From: an uncultured Candidatus Bathyarchaeia archaeon
Lineage (GTDB): Archaea > Thermoproteota > Bathyarchaeia > Bathyarchaeales > Bathyarchaeaceae
Reading direction: 5' to 3'
DNA length: 64,000 nt
Assembly (NCBI GenBank): GCA_964623205.1
Contig: CAZUQX010000006.1
Coordinates: 45,354-109,353, forward strand
The position numbers and the translations under genes were made by a program. The notes below the pieces were generated by a model that searched no databases, had not been told where the DNA came from, and saw nothing but the letters and a program-made list of their open reading frames with translations. Of this stretch, positions 6,828 through 46,390 are shown piece after piece. Numbering within the stretch: position 1 is the stretch's first letter; every line of letters begins with the position of its first letter.

Positions 6828-8078
6828 TTGGATATTCTTCACGTGGTCGCTTTATATCTCCCCTCAGTTGGTGGAACAGAAATTCACACTCGTGAATTGT
6901 CCATTGAGCTTGCAAGGCTTGGGCATCAGGTTTCAATTTTCACAACCGATGCAGTATATCTTAGTGACATGTTTCCTAAAATCGGATATAAAACCCAATG
7001 CTTGGGAGAAGCAGTCTTCACTGATTCCAACACTGTTGTTTACCGCTTCCATATAACCAACTCTTTGTTTGTAGCTTTTGTTATAAAGTGTTTGAGTGTA
7101 GCTTGTGATAGCATTGGAAATTTAGGACTATTCCAGTCAGATGTCTCCAATTATGTTACGGCTTTGCAAAACTCACCTTTTGTTCCAAAACTGTACTTCA
7201 AGTTGATCAAATCAACCCACATTGATGTTGTTAATAGTACACCGTTTCCTTTTGGTTACTTGCTGTTTCTGAAAAAAATATGCGAAAGAAAGCGGATTCC
7301 TTTCATAGTAACTCCAAGGGCACATACTATGTCATGGCTTTACGCACAGTCTTTTTTGTTGAAAACAGCGAGAGAATCAAACGGGGTAATAGCTTTAACG
7401 GAACATGAAAAGGCGTTTTTCGTTGAAAAAGGAGTATCCAATGATAAGATTTTTGTTACAGGTATTGGTATTCACCCCGAAAGTTATCAGAAAGGTGATT
7501 CTGTCTCATTTAAGGCAAAATACGGAATTTCTCAGGATTCTAAAATTATATTGTTTATTGGAAGAATAGATGAAGGTAAGGGCGTTGGGCTTTTACTTCG
7601 AAGCATGGAAATTGTTTGGAAAAGAATACCAGATGTTTATCTCGTTCTTCTAGGCAGATCTACAGAAGGAACATCAATGATAAGAGATCTTGTTCAGGAT
7701 GAGAAGAGAATTATAATCTTACCCGACGCTAATGAAAGAACAAAAAACGATGCGTTGTCTTCCTCGGATTTTCTTGTCCTTCCGTCAATTTACGAGTCTT
7801 TTGGAGGAGTCTTCTTAGAGGCATGGTCAGCAGGAAAACCTGTCATAGGCTCTAGAACACCAGCAATAAGCTGTGTTGTGGACGATATGGTTGACGGATT
7901 ATTAGTGTCTCCAAAAGAGAAGAGTGAATTAGCAGAGAAGATAATTTATCTTTTGGAGAATGAGGATGAAGCTAAGAGAATGGGCGAGAGAGGCAAAGAA
8001 AAGGTTCTAAGAAACTATACATGGGAGATTATAGCCAAAAAAACACTCGAAGTGTATGAACATGTATCCAAGAAGTGA
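6828..8078 (+). CDS. GT4 (group-1) glycosyltransferase
   Basis: 'YESFGGVFLEAWSAGKPVIGSRTPAISCVVDDMVDGLLV', plus the N-terminal 'MDILHVVALYLPSVGGTEIH'. Confidence 0.85.
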   Translation: MDILHVVALYLPSVGGTEIHTRELSIELARLGHQVSIFTTDAVYLSDMFPKIGYKTQCLGEAVFTDSNTVVYRFHITNSLFVAFVIKCLSVACDSIGNLGLFQSDVSNYVTALQNSPFVPKLYFKLIKSTHIDVVNSTPFPFGYLLFLKKICERKRIPFIVTPRAHTMSWLYAQSFLLKTARESNGVIALTEHEKAFFVEKGVSNDKIFVTGIGIHPESYQKGDSVSFKAKYGISQDSKIILFIGRIDEGKGVGLLLRSMEIVWKRIPDVYLVLLGRSTEGTSMIRDLVQDEKRIIILPDANERTKNDALSSSDFLVLPSIYESFGGVFLEAWSAGKPVIGSRTPAISCVVDDMVDGLLVSPKEKSELAEKIIYLLENEDEAKRMGERGKEKVLRNYTWEIIAKKTLEVYEHVSKK

Positions 8079-20186: not shown

Positions 20187-21179
20187 ATGAATAAAATAAG
20201 ATTAGGCTTGATTGGTTTAGGATACATAGGTAAAGTTCACCTTCGAAACTGTCTAAAGCTAGATTCTGTTAAGCTCGTAGCAGTTTCAGATGTCTCAAAA
20301 AAAGCCCTAAACCTTGCTAAAAAAAAGGGAGTAAAAAAAACCTATAGCGATTACAAAATGCTCTTAATCGACGACAGTATTGATGCTGTCATAATAGCTT
20401 TACCCACTTTCCTTCACTTTCCTTGTGCTATAGAAGCCGCAAAAGCAGGGAAACACATAATGCTAGAAAAACCATTAGCTAAAAACGTAGCAGAAGGAAA
20501 AGAAATTATATCAACAGCCAAGAAGAACAATGTCAAACTAATGGTTGCATATCCCTTCAGATTCTCTTCTCCCTTTCAAGCTCTTAAATACAGAATCGAA
20601 AAAGCTGAATTTGGAGAAATACCGATCGCATACGCAACGAACATAGCATCGGGGCCATTTTTCCACAGAGCTGAGAGACACATACCCCGTCCAATCCCCG
20701 AATGGTGGTTTAAAAAAGAATTCACAGGCGGGGGGGCTCTCATCGACCTAGGTAGCCACATGATAAATTTGGTACGCTGGTATTTCGGCGAAGTTAGCAA
20801 CGTAAAAGCACATCTTGGGCACAAATTCGGATTTGACTTTGAAGATCACGCAAGTTGCATTGTCCAATTCACTTCAGGAACAAAAGCCATCATTAACGTA
20901 GGCTGGTTTTCCCAAAAAACCACGTTAGAAATCGAACTTTTCGGAACCGTCGACCATGCCTTTGCAAATCACACTCCACCAAGTAAAATTATCGCAGCAA
21001 TCAAGCTTATTTTTAGGAGGACTCCGGAATATTTTAAGCCGCATTTTAAAGAAATATCACACTTTATTGACTGTATACAAAAGAATTCACAGCCATTACC
21101 ATCAGGCGACGACGCACTCAAAGACTTAAAAGTAATTGAACAAGCATACAAAAACCAGATATATTTAGATTCCAGTTGA
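20187..21179 (+). CDS. Gfo/Idh/MocA-family oxidoreductase
   Basis: 'IRLGLIGLGYIGKVHLRN' and 'HIMLEKPLA'. GAGGAG lies upstream of the ATG. Confidence 0.8.
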   Translation: MNKIRLGLIGLGYIGKVHLRNCLKLDSVKLVAVSDVSKKALNLAKKKGVKKTYSDYKMLLIDDSIDAVIIALPTFLHFPCAIEAAKAGKHIMLEKPLAKNVAEGKEIISTAKKNNVKLMVAYPFRFSSPFQALKYRIEKAEFGEIPIAYATNIASGPFFHRAERHIPRPIPEWWFKKEFTGGGALIDLGSHMINLVRWYFGEVSNVKAHLGHKFGFDFEDHASCIVQFTSGTKAIINVGWFSQKTTLEIELFGTVDHAFANHTPPSKIIAAIKLIFRRTPEYFKPHFKEISHFIDCIQKNSQPLPSGDDALKDLKVIEQAYKNQIYLDSS

Positions 21180-35370: not shown

Positions 35371-35646
35371 TTACCCTGGCAGTAGCCATTTGAGGGGTAT
35401 GTCTTGGTATGTTCCGTCTGGGAGGGTTCTTCGGATAGTGAGAGGAAGTGTCTTCGTATCTAGCTCCAAGAGCGCGATGTCAATAGGACCGGCGCGGGCT
35501 TCTGGAGACTGGATAATGATGGGAGCGCCCATAGCAATCTGTAGGGCCCTAGCTCCTACTATCCGAGCTCTCTCAAACCGAGTCAGTTTAGAAGGCCCGA
35601 TGGAAACTTCGGTCTTCTCGCTCGTTTCTCTAGAACGCTCCTGCAC
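35371..35646 (-). CDS. rpoK: DNA-directed RNA polymerase subunit K (Rpo6)
   Basis: '[23 protein letters not shown]' is the Rpo6/RpoK core. The only in-frame starts are GTG 35646 and GTG 35691, and both overlap the thermosome 3' end. Confidence 0.85.
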
Positions 35647-37306
35647 CTGGAGGTCCCATTCCCATTCCGCCCATTCCTCCCATTCCACCACCGCCTGGTG
35701 GCATTGGAGGAGTCTTCATTTTTCCTGAAGCTATTACATCATCAATCTTTAGGATCAAAGTCGCGGCTTCGGTACAGGATTTGATAATCTGCTTTTTAAC
35801 CACTATGGGCTCGAAGACACCAATTTTTTCCATGTCTCCAGCTTTGCCAGTGTTGACGTCAACTCCTGCCCAAACTTCTCCCTTCTCATGGTGAGCTCTT
35901 AATTCAGATATAATGTCAATAGGATCAAGTCCAGCGTTCTCGGCTAACGTGGTGGGTATTGCTTCAAGAGCCTCGGCGAACTGCATGACCGCGAGTTGTT
36001 CTCTTCCAGGAAGCGACTCGGCGTATTCCCTGAGAACTTTTGCGACCTCCATTTCTGGTGCACCGCCTCCAGCCATAATCTTTGGTTCCTCAACCACATC
36101 TCTTACAACACAGAGGGCATCATGTAATGAACGTTCTGCCTCGTCAACTATTCTCTCGGTTCCTCCGCGTATGAGAATTGTGACCGCCAGCGGATTTTTG
36201 CATCCTTCTACGAAGGTCATCTTGTCGTCGCCGATTTTCCGTTCTTCTACGAGTTGGGCGTAACCTAGGTCTTTCGCGTTCAAGTCATCTATGTTTGTGA
36301 CAACTTTTGCGCCTGTTGCCTTAGCTAAAGCTTCCATATCTGATTTTTTTACTCGGCGAACCGCTAAAACATTCTTCCTAGAGAGGAAGTGTTGAGCTAG
36401 GTCGTCAATGCCTTTTTGGCAGAGGATGACTGTTGCGCCTTTGGCGACAAGCTTCTCCACCATATCTTTTATCATATTCTCTTCTTGTTTGAGGAAAGCG
36501 TCCATTTGCTCTGGGCTTTCAATATTTATTTTTGCGTCGAACTCGGTTTTCTCAATCTCAAGGGCAGTATCTATCAAAACGATTTTTGCTTTCTCCACCC
36601 TTTTTGGCATGCCGGAGTGAACAACCTCTTTGTCAAGAACTATGCCGTTTATGAGTTTTGTATCTGTAAGGGACTCACCAGGTTTTTTCTCCACATTGAC
36701 GTTGTCAATATCCACTTTATAGCCGCCTCCAGTCTTTACGGCAACTTGGAGAATCGCCGAAGTAGCAATCTCACCTAGATATTCCCTACTTCCTGCCACC
36801 AGCTTGCTAGCCATGGAGGTCATGGCAACTTTCTCGATGGCCTTTTTGTCGGTGGGACTGATTGTTATCGCGATTTTTTCTAGAGTTTCTAGCGCTTTGT
36901 CAGCGGCTTTTCGGTATCCGTCGATGATGACTGTTGGATGAACATTTTTGTCTATGAGAGTTTCAGCTTTTGAAAGAAGTTCTCCTGCTATTATTACAGA
37001 ACTGGTTGTGCCGTCTCCCACTTCGTCGTCTTGGGTTTTGGCAACCTCCACCATCATCTTGGCGGCGGGGTGTTGAATATCCATTTCGTCTAGAACTGTG
37101 CGTCCGTCGCTGGTTATAGTTACGTCTCCGAAACTGTCTACCAGCATCTTGTCCATTCCTCTTGGTCCAAGGGCGCTCTTTACTGCTTCAGCTACTATTT
37201 GCGCAGCCATTATGTTGGCGTGCTGGGCTTCTTGCCCTCTTGACCGGGATGCTCCTTCACGGAGTATGAGAACAGGTGTTCCAGCTAATCCAGAAGACAA
37301 TCTCAA
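35630..37306 (-). CDS. ths: Thermosome subunit (group II chaperonin)
   Basis: '[39 protein letters not shown]', 'VGDGTTS' and the C-terminal '[11 protein letters not shown]' tail. The TTG start sits behind AAGGAG. Confidence 0.95.
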
Positions 37307-37349
37307 TCATTTCTCCTTATTTTGTTTCGGAACACTAGAAAATGCCTTG

Positions 37350-37359
37350 TAAATATAAA
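37350..37359 (-). promoter_or_regulatory. Candidate TATA box of the thermosome promoter
   Basis: The minus strand reads TTTATATTTA about 45-50 nt upstream of the TTG start. This spacing fits a leader of roughly 20 nt that carries the SD. Confidence 0.4.
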
Positions 37360-37372
37360 CATTGCTGTGGAG

Positions 37373-37423
37373 GGAACTGTTTCGTCTGCGTCGGATTGGT
37401 AATCTGGTTTTTTTCGTCGGATA
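37373..37423. repeat. Left terminal inverted repeat of the IS
   Basis: GGAACTGTTTCGTCTGCGTCGGATT... The first 25 nt are identical to the reverse complement of 39774-39798. Overall about 46 of 51 positions match. It contains two CGTCGGAT sub-repeats. Confidence 0.85.
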
Positions 37424-37657
37424 GTTGGGTTACGAAGAGTCTTTATTGTTAACACAAGTTTTAAGCTGTAAAATGGGTATAGAGAAATTAGTGAGCAAAA
37501 AGGGGGATAATTAAGTTGGGTGAGAAAATTAAAAACACTTTGTCAAAAATAGAAGCAGAAATTAAAAAAGAATCGAGAGTAGCACGTGGTTATGGATATT
37601 ATCAAAAAGTAATTTTGGTTGATAGAGTTATGGAAATTATTGAAAAACACTTTGAAA

Positions 37658-38800
37658 CTATCTAAGTCCTTTTTTACTTGCATTCTGGATTAGAGTTTTC
37701 CACTTGTTCTTGCCTTCTATCTTTATTCCGCATGCATCGGCAGGTGTTTTCCCATCTAGTCCTTCGTGTTCTCTAATAAAATTGTGGTATATTTGATAGC
37801 CTCTAAGAATTGGCGTATCTTTGTTTTTCAATCCTCTCATGACCTTTTCTCTGTCTCGGATTTCACCGTTTAGGCGTTCCATTTTGTTGTTGTTCATGTC
37901 ACCTTGAATCTTGATATGACGAATATGCTTGGTTCTTGGGTAGCGAAGAGTTCTAAATTCTTTTTTGTATGCGATATTGTAAGACCTGAGTCCATCGGTT
38001 ATCAGGGTTTCAGGTTTCTTTCCAGTTACCTTTTTGGCTAGTTGAAAGAGTGTTCTTGCGTCATGTTTGTATTTGGTTTCAGCAACTTCTTGAGCAATCC
38101 AGTAACGAGTTTCATCATCCATTATGGCAAAGACGTATTTCATGTCGCCTTTGAATTTCATCCAAAGCTCATCTGCTCTCCAAGTGTCAGACACATTAGG
38201 AGTTAGTTTCTCGATGTATTTTTCCATTAGTCCGATGTACTTCTTTATCCACTTGTAAACTGTAGAATGAGCAACTTCTACTCCAAGAAGCCTAAGCGAT
38301 TTCTGAGTATTCCTAAGTGATTCTCCGCTAAAATAAAGTTGCATAGCTGTCGTTATCGCCTGTGGGTTGTGCTTCATGCGTTCAAATCCAACATTGAAGG
38401 AGAAGTATTTCCTACAGTTTCGGCAATAGAACTTCTGTATCTCTCCATGCTTGTTATGGCGAACCCCATCCTTCACTATGTCGGTTGATTTACAGTAAAT
38501 GCAAGAAGAAACAGTCGTTATTGGAGTTATCCGCTTGGACTCAACCTTTTTCCTTAACGCTAAACTAAATTCCACTGCAAAGATGTGTTTGCACTTGACA
38601 TGGCGGTAAATGTGGTCGGGGCAACTGCACATCCAACCAATGCTAGATTTCAAAACTTCGTATTTGCCGTTACCCGATTGGCTCTTAACCTCAAAAACAG
38701 ACTCCTCAAAAATCGCCACTTGACCACGAAGATGAGCTATCTCTTTTCCCCGTTCTTCACGAGCTTTAAGTTGTGCAGTTGTTATCATTCCATTCACCAC
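37658..38800 (-). CDS. DDE transposase, IS6-family-like, with N-terminal SWIM-type zinc finger
   Basis: The SWIM-like motif is 'CSCPDHIYRHVKCKHIFAV'. The DDE core comprises 'WRADELWMKFKGDMKYVFAIMD', 'LITDGLRSY' and 'NNNKMERLNGEIRDR'. Confidence 0.8.
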   Translation of the reverse strand: MVNGMITTAQLKAREERGKEIAHLRGQVAIFEESVFEVKSQSGNGKYEVLKSSIGWMCSCPDHIYRHVKCKHIFAVEFSLALRKKVESKRITPITTVSSCIYCKSTDIVKDGVRHNKHGEIQKFYCRNCRKYFSFNVGFERMKHNPQAITTAMQLYFSGESLRNTQKSLRLLGVEVAHSTVYKWIKKYIGLMEKYIEKLTPNVSDTWRADELWMKFKGDMKYVFAIMDDETRYWIAQEVAETKYKHDARTLFQLAKKVTGKKPETLITDGLRSYNIAYKKEFRTLRYPRTKHIRHIKIQGDMNNNKMERLNGEIRDREKVMRGLKNKDTPILRGYQIYHNFIREHEGLDGKTPADACGIKIEGKNKWKTLIQNASKKGLR

Positions 38801-38921
38801 ATATCTCTCTATCTCTATAAATACACAAGTAAGTATATAAGCTTTCCCCTATATCTCCACAAACCTAAAACTTTATATGTGGATAGCTATACAAGTGTTA
38901 ATGGTGATAGATTTGGGAAAG

Positions 38922-39077
38922 ATGAATATAGTGCTAAGTGATGAATTGGAAGAAAAATTCCGAAAAGTTGTCTTTCAAAGAAAAGGAATGAAAAAAGGCA
39001 ACATCAGCAAAGCATTGGAAGAAGCAATTAAACAATGGATGGACTATTTCCCATCAGAAAAATGCAAGAGGGAATAA
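38922..39077 (+). CDS. Ribbon-helix-helix (CopG-like) small protein, IS passenger
   Basis: 'MNIVLSDELEEKFRKVV...KGNISKALEEAIKQWM' fits a beta-strand plus two helices. I take the internal ATG at 38922 as the start. Confidence 0.5.
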   Translation: MNIVLSDELEEKFRKVVFQRKGMKKGNISKALEEAIKQWMDYFPSEKCKRE

Positions 39078-39078
39078 T

Positions 39079-39570
39079 GTGAAAAACAATGGTAAAGAGA
39101 TTAAACCTGAGGCGACCAAATCAGGCACATCCCAACAACAAGAGAACACTCTCTTTTCTGCAAAAGAAGTTAAGGTGATAGTAAAAGATTTTGTAGCAGC
39201 TTTTATTTCTGGGCAAGTTAAAATCAACTTTCCTGATTCAAAAAGCATTTTTGATTTGCGCAAAGAAAAAGGAGAAAAAACGACTTCGGAAGAGGCATGT
39301 AAGCAAATGTTAGAAATTAAGACATATTTTCTTAAAAATGTTGGAATATGTGCCGGAACTACGAAGGCTACTCCAGAGGAACAGGAAAAGGCTCTTAATG
39401 AGGTGTTTTCAGATTTAATCGCATATCGTATCAGTAATCGAATAGATGGTGTCTTTATTGAATATGCATTGGAAGCTAGAATAAAGAGACTTGAAGAGGG
39501 CATAGATAAAGTAAACAATCTCGTAAAGGAAATTGTCGAGTGGATTATGAACCAAGTTGTTGACAAATAG
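39079..39570 (+). CDS. Hypothetical protein, IS passenger
   Basis: The GTG start lies 1 nt after the previous stop. The composition is K/E-rich and looks like a real protein. The antisense ORF 39054-39599 is S/L/F-rich and was rejected. Confidence 0.5.
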   Translation: MKNNGKEIKPEATKSGTSQQQENTLFSAKEVKVIVKDFVAAFISGQVKINFPDSKSIFDLRKEKGEKTTSEEACKQMLEIKTYFLKNVGICAGTTKATPEEQEKALNEVFSDLIAYRISNRIDGVFIEYALEARIKRLEEGIDKVNNLVKEIVEWIMNQVVDK

Positions 39571-39829
39571 ACTCTTTTGTCCAGAATGCAAATCTCCATT
39601 AACCCGTTATACTCGTGGAGATTATATAGAAAAAATCTGCTGGAACTGTGGGTACTATATATCTAATTCCCCAGCCTATCAGTCCAATCCAGAAATGTTC
39701 AGAAACCTAGTTCGAGATAATCCGACAAAATTTTTAAAAAAATTTCTTATCCGACGGAAAAAACCATATTTTAAATCCGACGCAGACGAAACAGTTCCCT
39801 GTGGAGGGTTCTGTAAAGTCTTCGGCTGA
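39557..39829 (+). CDS. Small zinc-ribbon protein, IS passenger; its 3' end reads through the right TIR
   Basis: 'CPECKSPL...CWNCGYY'. The ORF continues across the TIR and TSD to a stop at 39829. Confidence 0.4.
   Translation: MLTNRLFCPECKSPLTRYTRGDYIEKICWNCGYYISNSPAYQSNPEMFRNLVRDNPTKFLKKFLIRRKKPYFKSDADETVPCGGFCKVFG
39748..39798. repeat. Right terminal inverted repeat of the IS
   Basis: This is the reverse complement of the left TIR, ending ...AATCCGACGCAGACGAAACAGTTCC. Confidence 0.85.
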
Positions 39830-40046
39830 CGGGAATTCCTGTGAAAATCGGTTCATTGAAAATTTTTGTAAAAAAGGACTTAACAGAATCCGTTAGTAAC
39901 AAGGGTCATAATTACAAACAGAAATGTACATTCAATGGTTAAAACAAAAATAGTCAATTTGTTGTCTGAAAAACTTTTTCCAAAAATAATGTGCGGTTTT
40001 TGGATTAAATCTCTCCAGAATATCCTAAAAGTTTTCCAGATGTATC

Positions 40047-40077: not shown

Positions 40078-40719
40078 TCAGATCAGGACCTCGGTTATCG
40101 GTTTAAGTAATTTTTTGAAATATTTTTTCCAAGCTAATTGCAGTTGAGCCTCTGTCTCATTAACCGGCTGTTCTACTAGAGGTAACTTTCCCTTGATGCT
40201 TGTTCCGGCTACCGCTGCTAAGTCGAACGGATCAAAATCATACTTTTTAGCCAAGTGTTCTAGTCTAAACTGTCTAAGGTCCTTTGCCCGAATCTCCCTA
40301 CCTAATAAAGGAGACAAGTTTTCACGAATTATCTTATTTATCGTTACGCGAGTCAAATCAAACTCCAATTTCTTATTTCTTAGTTTGCGTTTCGCCAGAT
40401 CGCGGGTCCATGGTTCAAAACTTGGATGGGTAGGCAAAGCAATTATCTTGTAAGAAGGAAAACTTTGGCGTCTCATTGCAAGAGCTAGAGCGATGAGTAG
40501 AACGTCTTGCTTTTTTTTGAATTTGGAAAGCCAAGACCTCATAAATATTCCATAGGGTTTTGTGGTTTGGTTCTGCAGCTCTGATGGTGTAGTTCTTGTG
40601 CATATCTCGCTAGGTCTAGCAGCTGTTAAATACAACAATTTAATAAGCTCCCCATCGCGTAGACCCAACACATGATCAACCGCCTCCCGAAACCTACAGA
40701 AATCAACAGCTTTAACCAT
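40078..40719 (-). CDS. Divergent tyrosine-recombinase-like (integrase catalytic-domain-like) protein
   Basis: 'LLYLTAARPSEI' resembles integrase box I (Arg). 'DLRQFRLEHLA' resembles a degenerate H-x-L-R-H. The canonical GH...Y region is not clear. Confidence 0.4.
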   Translation of the reverse strand: MVKAVDFCRFREAVDHVLGLRDGELIKLLYLTAARPSEICTRTTPSELQNQTTKPYGIFMRSWLSKFKKKQDVLLIALALAMRRQSFPSYKIIALPTHPSFEPWTRDLAKRKLRNKKLEFDLTRVTINKIIRENLSPLLGREIRAKDLRQFRLEHLAKKYDFDPFDLAAVAGTSIKGKLPLVEQPVNETEAQLQLAWKKYFKKLLKPITEVLI

Positions 40720-41473: not shown

Positions 41474-42820
41474 TCACTCCACGCGCTCCAACTCGAACTT
41501 CAAAGCTTTTCGTTTCTTTTTTATGCCTTTCTTTTGGTCAAGTTTTTTCTTGGCTTTGAACAATGCTTTCACGACATCCGGTTCCCGCTTGGTGAAGAGA
41601 AAGACCCCCTTAGTACGAGTTTTAGCTCCTGTCATTTCCATGCCGTATGCATGTAGATCTTCCTTCTCTACAGATTTCATGAGATCTAAAAAGGGGTCCA
41701 GTTTTTTCTGCATCTCATTTAACTGCGTTTTCACTTCATTGATTTCCTTGTCTCTATCCATCAATTTCTTCTGTGCCTCATCCAGTTCTTCTCTAAGATC
41801 TCTGATTTGCCCTACAGTTTCGCTTGAGGTTTTGGTTTCGATACTGAGATGAGGAGCTGCCAATTCTGCATACTGTTTTCTGTGGTGTTCTGGATCCATG
41901 GCTCGGTAGTGATCCTGAACTCCGACTTTGTGTCCCATCCAGAACTCGGAGAACTCTTCTCCTGCATTATGGGCATACTTCTCGAAGAATTTTCTGAGAC
42001 TGTAAAGCCTTAATTCGCTTGGCTTGCCTTCCCGAACTTCAAACTCTAATACTCCGGTTTTTTTAAGTTTTCTTGCAGTCTTATTGAATTGAGATGAAAA
42101 GGCTGCAGTTTTCAATGGAGTGTTTTTGGACCCTGATCTCACGAAGAGGTAACTGTCTCGAGTGACATTTCTGGTTTTTAAGTAGGACTTCAAATTTTGA
42201 ATGGCTTCTAAGCCAATGAAGGAAAAGTAACTATGGTATCTTCCCTTGGCTATTTCACGTGGAACATCAATTTTAACAGGACTTTCTTCCATCAAGAGCC
42301 TTTGATATTCAATATGCTTGATCTGCAACCTGCACAAGGTAACAGGTCTGAGTCCACTCTGAGCCATTACAGCATAGAATGCTCGGTCCTTTGGCAGAGA
42401 GATACTCATGATAGCAGAGATCTCTTCTCGCCTGATATCACGATTATGATACTCGAAATGTCCCTGGGCTGTTGGGATAAAACCGATGTCTATTCTGTTA
42501 TGCTTATAAAAGCTCTGCGGCACCCCCACCATGCTTCTGATTGTGCTGTCAGCTAAGCCCCTTTCTCTCAATGAGATTATCCACTCTTTAATCTCGTCTG
42601 CAATCTTGTCCCTGAATTTTCGAAGTTCATTAAAATCCTGTATGCCCTTATACTCGGCTAAAATTTCCTCTGCAGTCCTGCCAATAAACTTGAGGTATAG
42701 GTCAATGCACCGACGATAGTTGACTTCCGTGGCTTTAGACCCGCTGCCCGAATAGGCTACACTAATCAGCCATTTTTCGATCGGATCATGCTTTAGTTGC
42801 GTCAAATCGTCCTGACCCAC
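41474..42820 (-). CDS. Tyrosine recombinase / phage-type integrase with C-terminal coiled-coil extension
   Basis: 'SGLRPVTLCRLQIKHI' (Arg), 'LYSLRKFFEKYA' and 'FWMGHKVGVQDHYRA' (His/Tyr region). The C-terminal tail is K/E-rich. Confidence 0.75.
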   Translation of the reverse strand: MGQDDLTQLKHDPIEKWLISVAYSGSGSKATEVNYRRCIDLYLKFIGRTAEEILAEYKGIQDFNELRKFRDKIADEIKEWIISLRERGLADSTIRSMVGVPQSFYKHNRIDIGFIPTAQGHFEYHNRDIRREEISAIMSISLPKDRAFYAVMAQSGLRPVTLCRLQIKHIEYQRLLMEESPVKIDVPREIAKGRYHSYFSFIGLEAIQNLKSYLKTRNVTRDSYLFVRSGSKNTPLKTAAFSSQFNKTARKLKKTGVLEFEVREGKPSELRLYSLRKFFEKYAHNAGEEFSEFWMGHKVGVQDHYRAMDPEHHRKQYAELAAPHLSIETKTSSETVGQIRDLREELDEAQKKLMDRDKEINEVKTQLNEMQKKLDPFLDLMKSVEKEDLHAYGMEMTGAKTRTKGVFLFTKREPDVVKALFKAKKKLDQKKGIKKKRKALKFELERVE

Positions 42821-46049: not shown

Positions 46050-46390
46050 TGTTTGGTTCTGTGTAGACTACTCTAGTTTTAACTAATATTTCTTTTTCTC
46101 ACAAGCCTAATTTTTCTATGATTCATAGACACATTGCAATCGATTTCACGCGTATCTTTGATCTGCTAATGGAGAAACTGAACCTGCGCATCTGTAAAAG
46201 GTAATTTGAAACAACTAAAATGTTGCCACAATACTATGATCAGTTTGATGTGCCCCGCAAGTATTTTTAGTAACTAGGAACATATCGCTATATCGCGCTA
46301 GTCCGATCTGAAATTTCATGTGTATAGAAAGTTAATTTGAAGTAGGAGGGGGTATGAACGTTACGTCCAGATCAACAAGAACTTAGGAAA

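Follow-up and report, generated by a model that had tools for sequence, protein, structure and literature searches.

The question raised by this locus is whether the 2,426 bp at 37373–39798 of the window (the whole 64-kb stretch of DNA that was analysed) form a single mobile element, and what the genes inside it do. We conclude that this region is an intact unit transposon, among the smallest of a large archaeal clade that is distantly related to IS6/IS26. A sequence-only reading of the same DNA had described 51-bp inverted ends, two sub-repeats in each end and an 8-bp flanking duplication, and recomputation returned all three. The terminal inverted repeats (37373–37423 versus the reverse complement of 39748–39798) match at 46 of 51 positions, the first 25 nt being identical, and a repeat search of the window stretched the end-to-end match to 53 nt at 91%. 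The five mismatches between the two ends would fit an element of some age. The terminal 25-mer occurs at two sites only in the window, both of them element ends, against 0 expected from 100 shuffles. Each end contains CGTCGGAT twice, spaced 26 nt (left, 37389 and 37415; right, 39749 and 39775 as the reverse complement). The transposase-distal repeat (plus strand) is composed of an outer part at 37373–37397, GGAACTGTTTCGTCTGCGTCGGATT, and an inner part at about 37403–37423, CTGGTTTTTTTCGTCGGATA, and the repeat on the side of the accessory operon (minus strand) of an outer part at 39774–39798 and an inner part at about 39748–39768. The element has GGAACTGTTT, in which the GG tip and the cTGTt motif are present as in IS6/IS26, and its flanks are the perfect direct repeat CTGTGGAG, at 37365–37372 on the left and 39799–39806 on the right. 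An apparent direct repeat does run on beyond these 8 nt (37365–37404 versus 39799–39838, 70% over 40 nt), because the sequence from 39807 on is the end of a related element; the 8-mers are therefore not part of a longer native repeat of the host, which the sequence-only reading had named among the findings that would together speak against it.

The transposase gene lies on the minus strand (37658–38800) and encodes 380 aa from a GTG start, and the database copy of the protein starts at ATG 38788 and has 376 aa. This protein is a DDE transposase, with an HTH and DDE core that is a distant relative of IS6 and stands behind a zinc-finger N-terminus of about 135 aa. The layout is an N-terminal helix, a SWIM-like C58xC60...C70xH72 finger, a four-Cys ribbon (C100, C103, C126, and C129), the HTH and the DDE core, with the triad D210, D269, and E308 followed by R315/R317 (K/R after E, as in the IS240/IS6 type). 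The IS6-type core proposed earlier was thus recovered: besides the triad, PF13610 (DDE_Tnp_IS240) matches at 56.5 bits against a gathering cut-off of 27, and the core (residues ∼137–367) is 24–31% identical to annotated IS6 transposases. The whole NCBIfam model NF033587 (transpos_IS6, 1–202) aligns with residues 139–343 (E 2e-34), at 119 bits and thus below its cut-off of 125. The SWIM signature C58-x-C60-x9-C70-x-H72 is present; the PF04434 model, with a cut-off of 19.6 bits, gives it 14.2, and a match to this model is precomputed for several homologues. The best plasmid matches are clostridial IS6 elements (30–31% identity), no relative was found in the PDB, and viral contigs yielded one partial relative only. 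The NCBI name of a close homologue is only “DDE-type integrase/transposase/recombinase,” and Harmer and Hall have suggested that archaeal “IS6” elements may merit a separate family (PMC6807381).

The sequence-only reading had proposed a search for further copies and empty sites, and neither was found for this element. The 64-kb window contained no second copy and no transposase remnant, and the exact sequence of the transposase is a singleton in the protein collection. The unoccupied site expected for a simple insertion is ...AACATTGCTGTGGAGGGTTCTGTAAAG..., and a scan of metagenome contigs with the left flank plus the duplication (AAATATAAACATTGCTGTGGAG) returned no empty or filled homologous site. 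Sixteen metagenome matches to this query were rejected as empty sites, all being in unrelated genes; the 22-mer, read in frame, gives KYKHCCG, which we take to be a SEC-C-type motif. The argument for mobility is therefore made from the family.

This family is large. We found 5,507 transposase homologues, mainly in Bathyarchaeia, Methanoperedens, and Nitrososphaeria, and collected 78 genome loci; no description of the clade was found in the literature searched. Fifty relatives were delimited, 2,192–5,701 bp in length, with GG-tipped ends and perfect 8-bp duplications (tip consensus, GGTTCTGT; end-site consensus, GGTTCTGTnAAGTCTTCGTnnGAT). In one of the loci (L079), deletion of the element and one copy of the duplication in silico restores a 457-aa pyruvate kinase ORF. 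The family ends are bipartite and about 50 bp long, each with two tandem copies of a ∼20-nt site, the second copy being 26–28 nt inward in 62 of 100 ends. The 11-nt outer core matches the inner region of its own element at ≥ 9 positions in 29% of ends, versus 4.7% for the inner regions of other elements, and this greater likeness within elements than between them supports the bipartite structure. The ends of the window copy had been called unusually long, and they are indeed far longer than the 15–20 bp described for IS6 (PMC7986276), but this is the norm of the family, in which ends have two parts, and not peculiar to this copy.

We then considered the remaining genes. Non-transposase genes lie within the same repeats and duplication as the transposase gene, which is the arrangement of a passenger-carrying IS (tIS) or unit transposon. 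The first gene of the plus-strand operon (gene A, 38922–39077) encodes a 51-aa ribbon-helix-helix (RHH) protein, as had been read from the sequence, and matches PF16762 (RHH_6, E 6.6e-5). Homologues occupy the same position in loci L015, L043, L047, L067, L069, and L076, and a small ORF is found there in 45 of the 50 relatives, at least 26 of these matching MazE/AbrB, RHH, or zinc-ribbon families. A small DNA-binding protein holds this position in nearly all relatives. The RHH protein, whose gene diverges from that of the transposase, most likely represses a shared control region. Its presumed operator is the divergent intergenic region (38801–38921), which may have a regulatory role and contains A/T-rich TATA-like boxes and short repeats (CTCTATCTCTATAAA and CTATATCTCCACAAA at a distance of 42 nt, together with an inverted repeat of 8 nt, CCACATAT / ATATGTGG). 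A sigma-70 promoter scan was set aside as inapplicable to an archaeon.

The two distal genes are the 163-aa and 90-aa ORFs noted earlier. Gene B (39079–39570, plus strand) encodes an all-helical protein with no match in Pfam, NCBIfam, PADLOC, or PHROGs and no sequence relatives in the PDB or on viral contigs. Its AlphaFold model (pLDDT 89.6) has a disordered N-terminus, a four-helix core and a long C-terminal helix, and Foldseek found no fold neighbour in the PDB or BFVD for either a shallow or a deep model. The family comprises 217 cluster representatives, all of about 160 aa, is remotely related by hhalign (probability 81%, E 1.3e-5) to the gene in second place in AbrB-type elements, and adjoins the transposase gene in every case with known context. 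Gene B thus founds an uncharacterised family with a confidently predicted fold that has no known neighbour. Gene C (39557–39829, plus strand) encodes a zinc-ribbon protein (CPEC...CWNC) and leaves the element through the right end, its stop being 31 nt past the boundary. It has no match in PADLOC or PHROGs and matches only generic zinc ribbons, weakly, in Pfam and NCBIfam; structure and HMM searches of the cargo, which had been recommended, accordingly gave RHH_6 for A and a weak zinc ribbon for C, but nothing for B. Homologues of C are found in L015, L060, and L076. Its conserved residues are 1 to ∼63, and its tail is read from the terminal repeat, on through the duplication and into the neighbouring solo end. 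An outward ORF of ≥ 70 aa crosses the operon-side end in 25 of 50 elements and the opposite end in 4 of 50. A cluster of last genes (“C1”) was rejected as homology, being partly held together by the tail that the terminal repeat encodes.

A further 49-codon ORF had been listed between the left end and the transposase stop. It is present (37516–37665, plus strand) but doubtful as a gene, with no homologue in 84 related loci and no family match. The slot in which it lies, downstream of the transposase gene, is unrelated between elements even where the transposases are 85–89% identical. There was no Rfam match in 37200–40000, and RNA structure in 37424–37660 (237 nt) was no better than in shuffles (z +1.0 and +1.5 for the two strands).

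The description of the element as a cargo-carrying IS holds in that extra genes are carried, but these are not arbitrary cargo. The RHH/163-aa/zinc-ribbon operon recurs, divergent from related transposase genes, in L015, L060, L076, and L101–L103, and an equivalent three-gene layout is found in about half of the 50 relatives. Elsewhere in the family, this slot is filled by restriction-modification (RM), GmrSD, or ParB-DUF488 genes and the duplications are retained, and L002 has no upstream genes at all, yet a perfect duplication. The presence of RM and GmrSD genes in this slot indicates that the two distal genes are dispensable payload, and the perfect duplications made without B and C indicate that neither is required. 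From these comparisons, B and C appear to be a co-inherited pair that is dispensable for transposition. Since RM and GmrSD genes fill the same slot elsewhere, we favour a selfish maintenance role for the pair, addiction- or defence-like, with an optional helper function in transposition a close second.

The helper function would make the operon an accessory system for end synapsis, target capture beside resident ends, or cointegrate resolution, comparable to TnpR/res of Tn3 or to helpers of the TniQ/TnsC type. We consider this possible but doubtful. The A+B+C-sized layout is the commonest occupant of the slot, the operon genes overlap and, as tnpR does in Tn3, run divergently to the gene of the transposase, the B superfamily is present in both RHH-type and AbrB-type elements, and B adjoins only this transposase wherever the flanks are known. 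However, the elements described above, with RM/GmrSD genes instead of B/C or with no upstream genes, have perfect duplications, the 8-bp junctions described below involve elements of every accessory type, and B has neither recombinase or ATPase features nor a fold neighbour. The fusion of the last gene to the terminal repeat in half of the elements might also suggest a functional link, but the frame of the C tail varies among elements, so the fusion looks like compaction.

It is also unlikely, and somewhat more so, that the plus-strand genes are a classical toxin–antitoxin (TA) cargo, an idea close to that of the sequence-only reading, possibly a three-component system like omega-epsilon-zeta with an RHH repressor. 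First genes throughout the family have folds typical of antitoxins and TA repressors (MazE/AbrB in 11, RHH in at least 9, and a single Omega_Repress match), varied DNA-binding folds are combined with one B superfamily, B and C diverge fast, and the pair is the positional equivalent of addictive RM systems. A TA module would have a DNA-binding first gene, here the RHH gene, together with a partner of a recognised toxin family or fold. In contrast, searches of Pfam, NCBIfam, PADLOC, and PHROGs matched neither B nor C to a known toxin, antitoxin, or defence family, the helical fold predicted for B is novel, and B was not seen apart from the transposase in the available contexts, unlike promiscuous TA modules.

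The right-hand neighbour of the element bears on how it reached its site. The stretch 39807–39856 (plus strand) is a solo end, likewise bipartite, that belongs to another member of the family (GGTTCTGTAAAGTCTTCGGCTGAC ... CTGTGAAAATCGGTTCAT). Its tip faces that of the element across exactly 8 bp, so that the right copy of the duplication doubles as the spacer. The position-weight-matrix score of this solo end (31.2) is higher than that of the element's own ends (26.2). The window contains no partner for this end and no second transposase gene or remnant, and the genes of the right flank (40078–40719 and 41474–42820) have no relatives in the family loci. When family ends were located with the matrix in 85 loci, 221 were detected, versus 5 in shuffles. 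All 31 tip-to-tip junctions had a spacing of exactly 8 bp, and the next smallest spacing was 65 bp. The neighbours at these junctions are heterologous, one 8-mer is repeated at successive junctions (three times in L051 and twice each in L023 and L057), and such junctions were seen for elements of every accessory type. The uniform spacing, a feature of static genome structures, implies that insertion may be targeted to the 8 bp beside resident family ends. If so, the 8 bp flanking a resident tip would be the preferred target of the family, and the window copy would have landed on the 8 bp just outside the tip at 39807. Sequential insertions would build heterologous arrays that repeat one 8-mer, and loss of inner ends in such arrays could capture neighbouring genes, for example RM systems.

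The two copies of CTGTGGAG might instead not derive from the element's own insertion, but represent the shared spacer of a former array, left by recombination or deletion, or an 8-mer hot spot; we regard this as quite improbable. In arrays, one 8-mer flanks several different elements, so a pair need not mark one event; reverse-complement 8-mers in L045 point to rearrangement, and the right-hand neighbour in the window is reduced to a solo end. Against this, sequential insertion still gives each element of an array its own duplication, and the window element is bordered on its left not by another end but by unique host DNA from upstream of the thermosome. A hot spot is opposed by the target 8-mers themselves, which vary widely between arrays and follow only a weak Y-N-W4-N-R pattern across the family. 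That the interval is not a unit at all, but a chance enclosure of host genes by two solo ends or a two-element composite, can be practically dismissed: the family does include composites and elements with extra internal ends (L079 has one at 7521, and there are spare ends in L001, L022, and L024), but the matrix scan found no internal family end in 37373–39798, the element's two ends resemble each other far more than any other end, and the same gene order recurs inside matched ends and duplications in many unrelated genomes.

Canonical IS6 elements are among the closest known systems. They are 0.7–0.9 kb long, with ends of 14–20 bp, GG tips, the cTGTt motif and an 8-bp duplication (PMC7986276). 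The earlier reading of an IS6-like element with such a duplication is supported, although the window element is far larger. The archaeal family shares with IS26, IS257, IS6100, and IS240 the HTH and DDE core (PF13610, transpos_IS6), the GG tips, the CTGT motif and the 8-bp duplication, and like IS6/IS26 it tends to insert next to copies already in place. Unlike these single-gene elements, it has two-site ends (51–53 bp in the window copy), extra genes (three supported ones in the window copy) and a size of 2.2–5.7 kb, and the window transposase differs in the zinc-finger N-terminus, in the core identity given above and in a score just under the NCBI cut-off. In the targeted mode of IS26, molecules are joined at the IS with no duplication, whereas in the archaeal family whole elements lie tip to tip with a duplicated 8-mer between them. 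The transposases of IS6 clades h and i, from Clostridia, are 340–450 aa long with a CxxC zinc-finger N-terminal extension (PMC7986276, PMC6807381) and similarly have one or more zinc-finger domains ahead of an IS6-type core. However, these clades are bacterial, 1.2–1.8 kb in size, and carry the transposase gene only, and a SWIM-like finger (CxCxnCxH), ends with two sites and an accessory operon are absent from their descriptions. ISDsp3, the sole tIS listed for the IS6 family (PMC7986276), is likewise an IS6-type element with a passenger gene of unknown function. It is one bacterial case with one passenger, whereas passengers, RM and GmrSD genes included, are the rule in the archaeal clade.

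Two other groups offer partial parallels. Members of the Tn3 family transpose replicatively and have 38-bp terminal repeats, cargo slots and a regulator or accessory gene that shares its control region with the divergent transposase gene. The window element resembles them in its long terminal repeats, its predicted divergent regulator with a shared control region and its cargo slots. In contrast, Tn3 has an unrelated and much larger transposase, a 5-bp duplication and recombinase-based resolution, and its target immunity is the opposite of the clustering in the archaeal family. For IS30 and IS911, insertion is directed to resident ends, with abutted ends and a spacer of duplication length (cited in PMC4471558; PMC9333248), as in the archaeal junctions. 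Those families transpose by copy-out-paste-in, in which a single kind of IS forms circle or dimer junctions with spacers of 2–3 bp, whereas the archaeal junctions involve heterologous neighbours, an 8-bp spacer and an IS6-like transposase.

Taken together, the locus is very probably best explained as an IS6-like unit transposon with end-adjacent insertion, an RHH repressor and a dispensable B/C payload. Each end may be bound by two transposase protomers. If the mechanism resembles that of IS6/IS26, the 3′ ends would be joined to the target at bonds with an 8-bp stagger, and replicative copy-in would give a cointegrate intermediate that is resolved later; the reverse-complement 8-mers of L045 are compatible with intramolecular replicative events, although only suggestive of them. 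More tentatively, and with somewhat less than even confidence, the clade is IS6-like yet arguably a family of its own, characterised by two-site end reading, by insertion beside any resident member, and by the RHH/AbrB-B-C operon as a new transposon-borne system.

Cargo-carrying DNA transposons are a class that has been listed as undetected in archaea (PMC6563490). The clade described here, whose transposase homologues number in the thousands among Bathyarchaeia, Methanoperedens, and ammonia-oxidising archaea, moves RM and other defence genes, and its size and cargo make it a plausible vehicle of gene flow in poorly cultivated, ecologically important archaea. The 163-aa protein adds a confidently predicted new fold to which no function is assigned, and if the operon proves to be a transposon-borne system, it could serve element maintenance or target choice. 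A tip-to-tip spacing that is always 8 bp provides a clear signature, open to experimental test, of insertion targeted to resident ends. Such end-adjacent targeting could account for the way in which IS6-type enzymes locate copies already present, a behaviour that is clinically important in IS26, and could reveal how transposons arrive at “safe” sites and gather cargo.

The IS6-like element occupies positions 37373–39798 of the window (2,426 bp) and has a G+C content of 37.2%, compared with 40.6% for the window. Its left end (37373–37423) agrees with the reverse complement of 39748–39798 at 46 of 51 positions, the first 25 being identical, exactly as the sequence-only reading had described, and a repeat search extended this match to 53 nt at 91%. 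The 25-mer tip occurs twice in the 64 kb, both times as an end of the element, and none is expected in shuffled sequence. The two sub-repeats noted in each end were likewise recovered, with CGTCGGAT present twice per end at a spacing of 26 nt, and CTGTGGAG forms a perfect 8-bp duplication on both sides (37365–37372 and 39799–39806). Weak matches to the tip motif were also seen at 46055–46069 (GGTTCTGTGTAGACT, one mismatch to a degenerate pattern) and at 20262–20286 (matrix score 14.5); these are probably due to chance, because both lack a partner end and a second site. To the left lies an archaeal thermosome subunit gene (35630–37306, minus strand) with the start codon TTG at 37306, so that the element is 66 nt upstream of it (37307–37372 intervening). 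A TATA-like sequence, TTTATATTT, is found at 37350–37359 (minus strand), and the element begins about 13 nt beyond; the core of the thermosome promoter seems to have been spared, with a transposon end now as its upstream context.

The transposase gene (37658–38800, minus strand) encodes 380 aa, and the proposed DDE enzyme with an IS6-type core was borne out: Pfam DDE_Tnp_IS240 scored 56.5 bits against a threshold of 27, and the catalytic residues D210, D269, and E308 are readable. The NCBI IS6 model aligned in full over residues 139–343 with 119 bits, narrowly missing the curated cut-off of 125. The best matches on annotated plasmids are genes named “IS6 family transposase” (Clostridium, Cetobacterium, IS257, and ISCpe7), with 24–31% identity over residues ∼137–367. 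An N-terminal extension of ∼135 residues contains a SWIM-like motif (C58xC60-x9-C70xH72) and a four-Cys ribbon that matches the N-terminal zinc models of IS1/IS1595 and IS256. The SWIM-like finger suggested earlier is therefore present as a motif, although its Pfam SWIM score is below the threshold; several homologues carry a SWIM hit. No solved structure related to the transposase was found.

A protein search returned 5,507 transposase homologues, the best non-self match being 89% identical, and Bathyarchaeia bins supplied the nearest relatives of the proteins encoded by the element; with the thermosome gene, this points to a Bathyarchaeia-type archaeon as the probable host. A genome scan yielded 78 loci, mostly from Bathyarchaeia, Methanoperedens, and Nitrososphaeria (Nitrosopumilus, Nitrosotalea, Nitrososphaera, and Nitrosocosmicus). 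By seeking, at each locus and in four added metagenomic relatives, inverted-repeat pairs flanked on each side by one and the same 8-mer, we delimited 50 elements of 2,192–5,701 bp. Nearly all of them start with GGTTCTGT, in agreement with the GG tips and cTGTt motif of the IS6 family (PMC7986276). One relative of 5,150 bp (L079/L080, 4944–10093), whose transposase is 89% identical to that of the window element, lies inside a pyruvate kinase gene with the duplication TATCACCG. When this element and one copy of the duplication were removed in silico, an uninterrupted 457-aa kinase ORF resulted, and this restoration serves as a computed empty site for a close relative. The same element also carries an N6_N4 methylase/NmeDI_C gene (805 aa) and, at 7521, a spare inner end belonging to another subfamily; it recurs in L081 with a different right flank. 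Two loci with family elements of the usual type, L007 and L017, come from bins labelled bacterial (Pirellulales and Saccharibacteria, respectively). They are probably mis-binned archaeal DNA, and transfer between domains is a possible explanation.

The exact transposase sequence occurs once in the protein collection, no second copy of the element was found in the window, and a scan of metagenome contigs found no empty site of this very element. That search was defeated by the 22 nt left of the element (37351–37372, AAATATAAACATTGCTGTGGAG), which are identical to a coding stretch in 16 unrelated metagenome contigs. The stretch encodes KYKHCCG there, which we take to be a SEC-C-type motif; it is intergenic in the window, and the match looks coincidental. 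The earlier description of a cargo-carrying IS is supported by the enclosed extra genes and by the perfect duplications seen across the family. Because its relatives are bounded in the same way and the kinase gene in L079/L080 could be restored, the element in the window qualifies as a genuine mobile element, though it is single-copy.

The sequence-only reading had called the long ends unusual. When 100 ends were aligned, an outer site with the consensus GGTTCTGTnAAGTCTTCGTnnGAT was followed by a second, tip-less copy (TGTnAAnnTTCG...GAT), which lies 26–28 nt further in for 62 ends and 36–37 nt further in for 12. The two CGTCGGAT sub-repeats first noted in each end correspond to these two sites. 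The variable positions covary: of the outer site's 11-nt distal core, ≥ 9 of 11 positions recurred within the element's own inner region in 29% of ends, compared with 4.7% when paired with other elements (clear examples are L002, L006, and L013). Based on this second copy and its covariation, long bipartite ends are the family norm, in contrast to the 14–20 bp ends of canonical IS6 elements (PMC7986276, PMC8477213). Most simply, each end is predicted to contain two transposase-binding sites.

Upstream of the transposase gene, and divergent from it, is an operon of overlapping genes: gene A (38922–39077; a 51-aa RHH protein, RHH_6, E 6.6e-5, in line with its first description), gene B (39079–39570; 163 aa), and gene C (39557–39829; a 90-aa zinc-ribbon protein). 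All the ORFs named in the sequence-only reading exist, but the 49-codon ORF downstream of the transposase gene, listed there as a possible further passenger, has no homologue in related elements. This downstream slot is hypervariable even among near relatives, and no RNA signal was found in it. L015 (Bathyarchaeota), L060, and L076 (Nitrosopumilus) each carry the A-B-C trio, with its gene order unchanged, beside a related transposase gene, and the trio also appears in all three contexts of P0125; the nearest relatives (L079–L084) have the same small/medium/medium layout with different sequences. A small ORF occupies position A in 45 of the 50 elements; the proteins encoded there include MazE/AbrB-type proteins (at least 11), RHH-type proteins (at least 9), and zinc ribbons (about 4). 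In 25 of the 50, the last gene continues outward through the terminal repeat to a stop codon in the flanking DNA, whereas this occurs at the opposite end in 4 of 50. Since the repeat is read in different frames in different elements, we attribute the read-through to compaction and not to a conserved peptide.

The B family comprises 217 cluster representatives of ∼160 aa each, with near-invariant residues F38, F110, R117, R121, G124, F126, and E139. Protein B had no match in Pfam, NCBIfam, PADLOC, or PHROG. AlphaFold, run on a 100-sequence alignment, confidently predicted (pLDDT 89.6) a core of four helices preceded by a disordered N-terminus and followed by a long C-terminal helix, and the model had no neighbour in PDB or BFVD (best E 0.95 and 0.24, TM-scores < 0.3); it may be a new fold. 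A profile–profile comparison linked protein B to the second gene of AbrB-type elements (probability 81%, E 1.3e-5, 111 columns), which points to one B superfamily pairing with either kind of first gene.

Other elements carry different genes in the slot behind A: a type I/IIG N6-methylase with a specificity subunit (L017 and L068), an N6_N4 methylase fused to Mrr (L023, N6_N4_Mtase+Mrr_cat), a BsaWI-type endonuclease (L014, RE_BsaWI), GmrSD-HNH (L018), or ParB-DUF488 (L005). All of these are enclosed by the same ends and perfect 8-bp duplications, and the six loci are defence-gene transposons in archaea. Restriction-modification domains seen in larger members are N6_Mtase+HSDR_N, Methylase_S, N6_N4_Mtase+Mrr_cat, and RE_BsaWI. 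In L079, the extra 805-aa methylase gene flanks the transposase gene on its opposite, downstream side. Gene A is a near-universal companion of the transposase gene, and its product is best read as a putative repressor of the divergent control region (38801–38921), which contains short repeats. Elements with other genes in the slot keep perfect duplications, and upstream genes are entirely missing in L002; we conclude that B and C are dispensable for transposition. We favour a putative selfish maintenance payload for these two genes, given that they occupy the position held elsewhere by addictive or defence systems, that their partners have antitoxin-type folds, and that B and C diverge rapidly. 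An optional helper of transposition is a serious alternative. No family match supports a textbook toxin–antitoxin assignment; a toxin–antitoxin-like module was one of the options originally offered.

The 50 nt directly right of the element (from 39807) form the bipartite end of a different family member, for which no partner end or transposase gene was found in the window; exactly the 8-bp duplication separates the two tips (39798 and 39807). Further right are two minus-strand genes (40078–40719 and 41474–42820), a 213-aa ORF without a Pfam match that resembles a recombinase fragment and a tyrosine recombinase of the Phage_integrase family (448 aa), respectively. The pair points to an unrelated second mobile element or to a rearranged island, which may have truncated the element's neighbour.

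Using a position weight matrix derived from the outermost 25 nt, we detected 221 ends in 84 loci and the window, compared with 5 in shuffled sequence. With junction spacings from −1 to 40 allowed, all 31 tip-to-tip junctions were at exactly 8 bp, and the next smallest end spacing was 65 bp. These junctions were found in the window and in L002, L011, L012, L017, L023, L040, L042, L043, L045, L048, L050, L051, L053, L057, L059, L062, L063, L066, L067, L069, L071, L074, L075, L077, and L078. The neighbours are heterologous (two adjacent L051 elements align only over ∼1.1 kb at 73% identity), their relative orientation varies, and many have their own transposase genes. The same 8-mer is repeated at successive junctions in L051 (TGCTTTTG, three times), L023 (TTGAATAT, twice), and L057 (CCCAAACA, twice); in L045 the 8-mer on one side is the reverse complement of that on the other, suggesting an inversion. 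Because the target 8-mers vary from array to array and have only the weak pattern Y-N-W-W-W-W-N-R in common, a sequence hot spot is unlikely. The simplest reading is that new insertions would target the 8 bp next to a resident end, with the same 8-mer re-duplicated each time. Under standard DDE chemistry, the tip bond under attack would, on the strand concerned, be the very one cut by the transposase of the resident. Spare internal ends are common (L001, L009, L022, L024, L043, L049, L078, and L079), suggesting that cargo is captured when arrays form and then lose their inner ends. Insertion targeted to repeats has precedents in IS30 and IS911, and IS26 favours resident IS26 copies (PMC4471558, PMC9333248, PMC7986276), but their products differ from the 8-bp heterologous junctions of this clade. 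No description of this junction pattern or of the clade was found in the searchable literature.

The element works like an IS6-type transposon, sharing with that family the core enzyme, the tip motif, and the 8-bp duplication, but it departs from the family's short ends, small size, and single gene. The place of archaeal “IS6” elements in the family has already been questioned by Harmer and Hall (PMC6807381). A single element of this kind is ordinary in principle; it is the features of the clade that are undescribed and cleanly testable.
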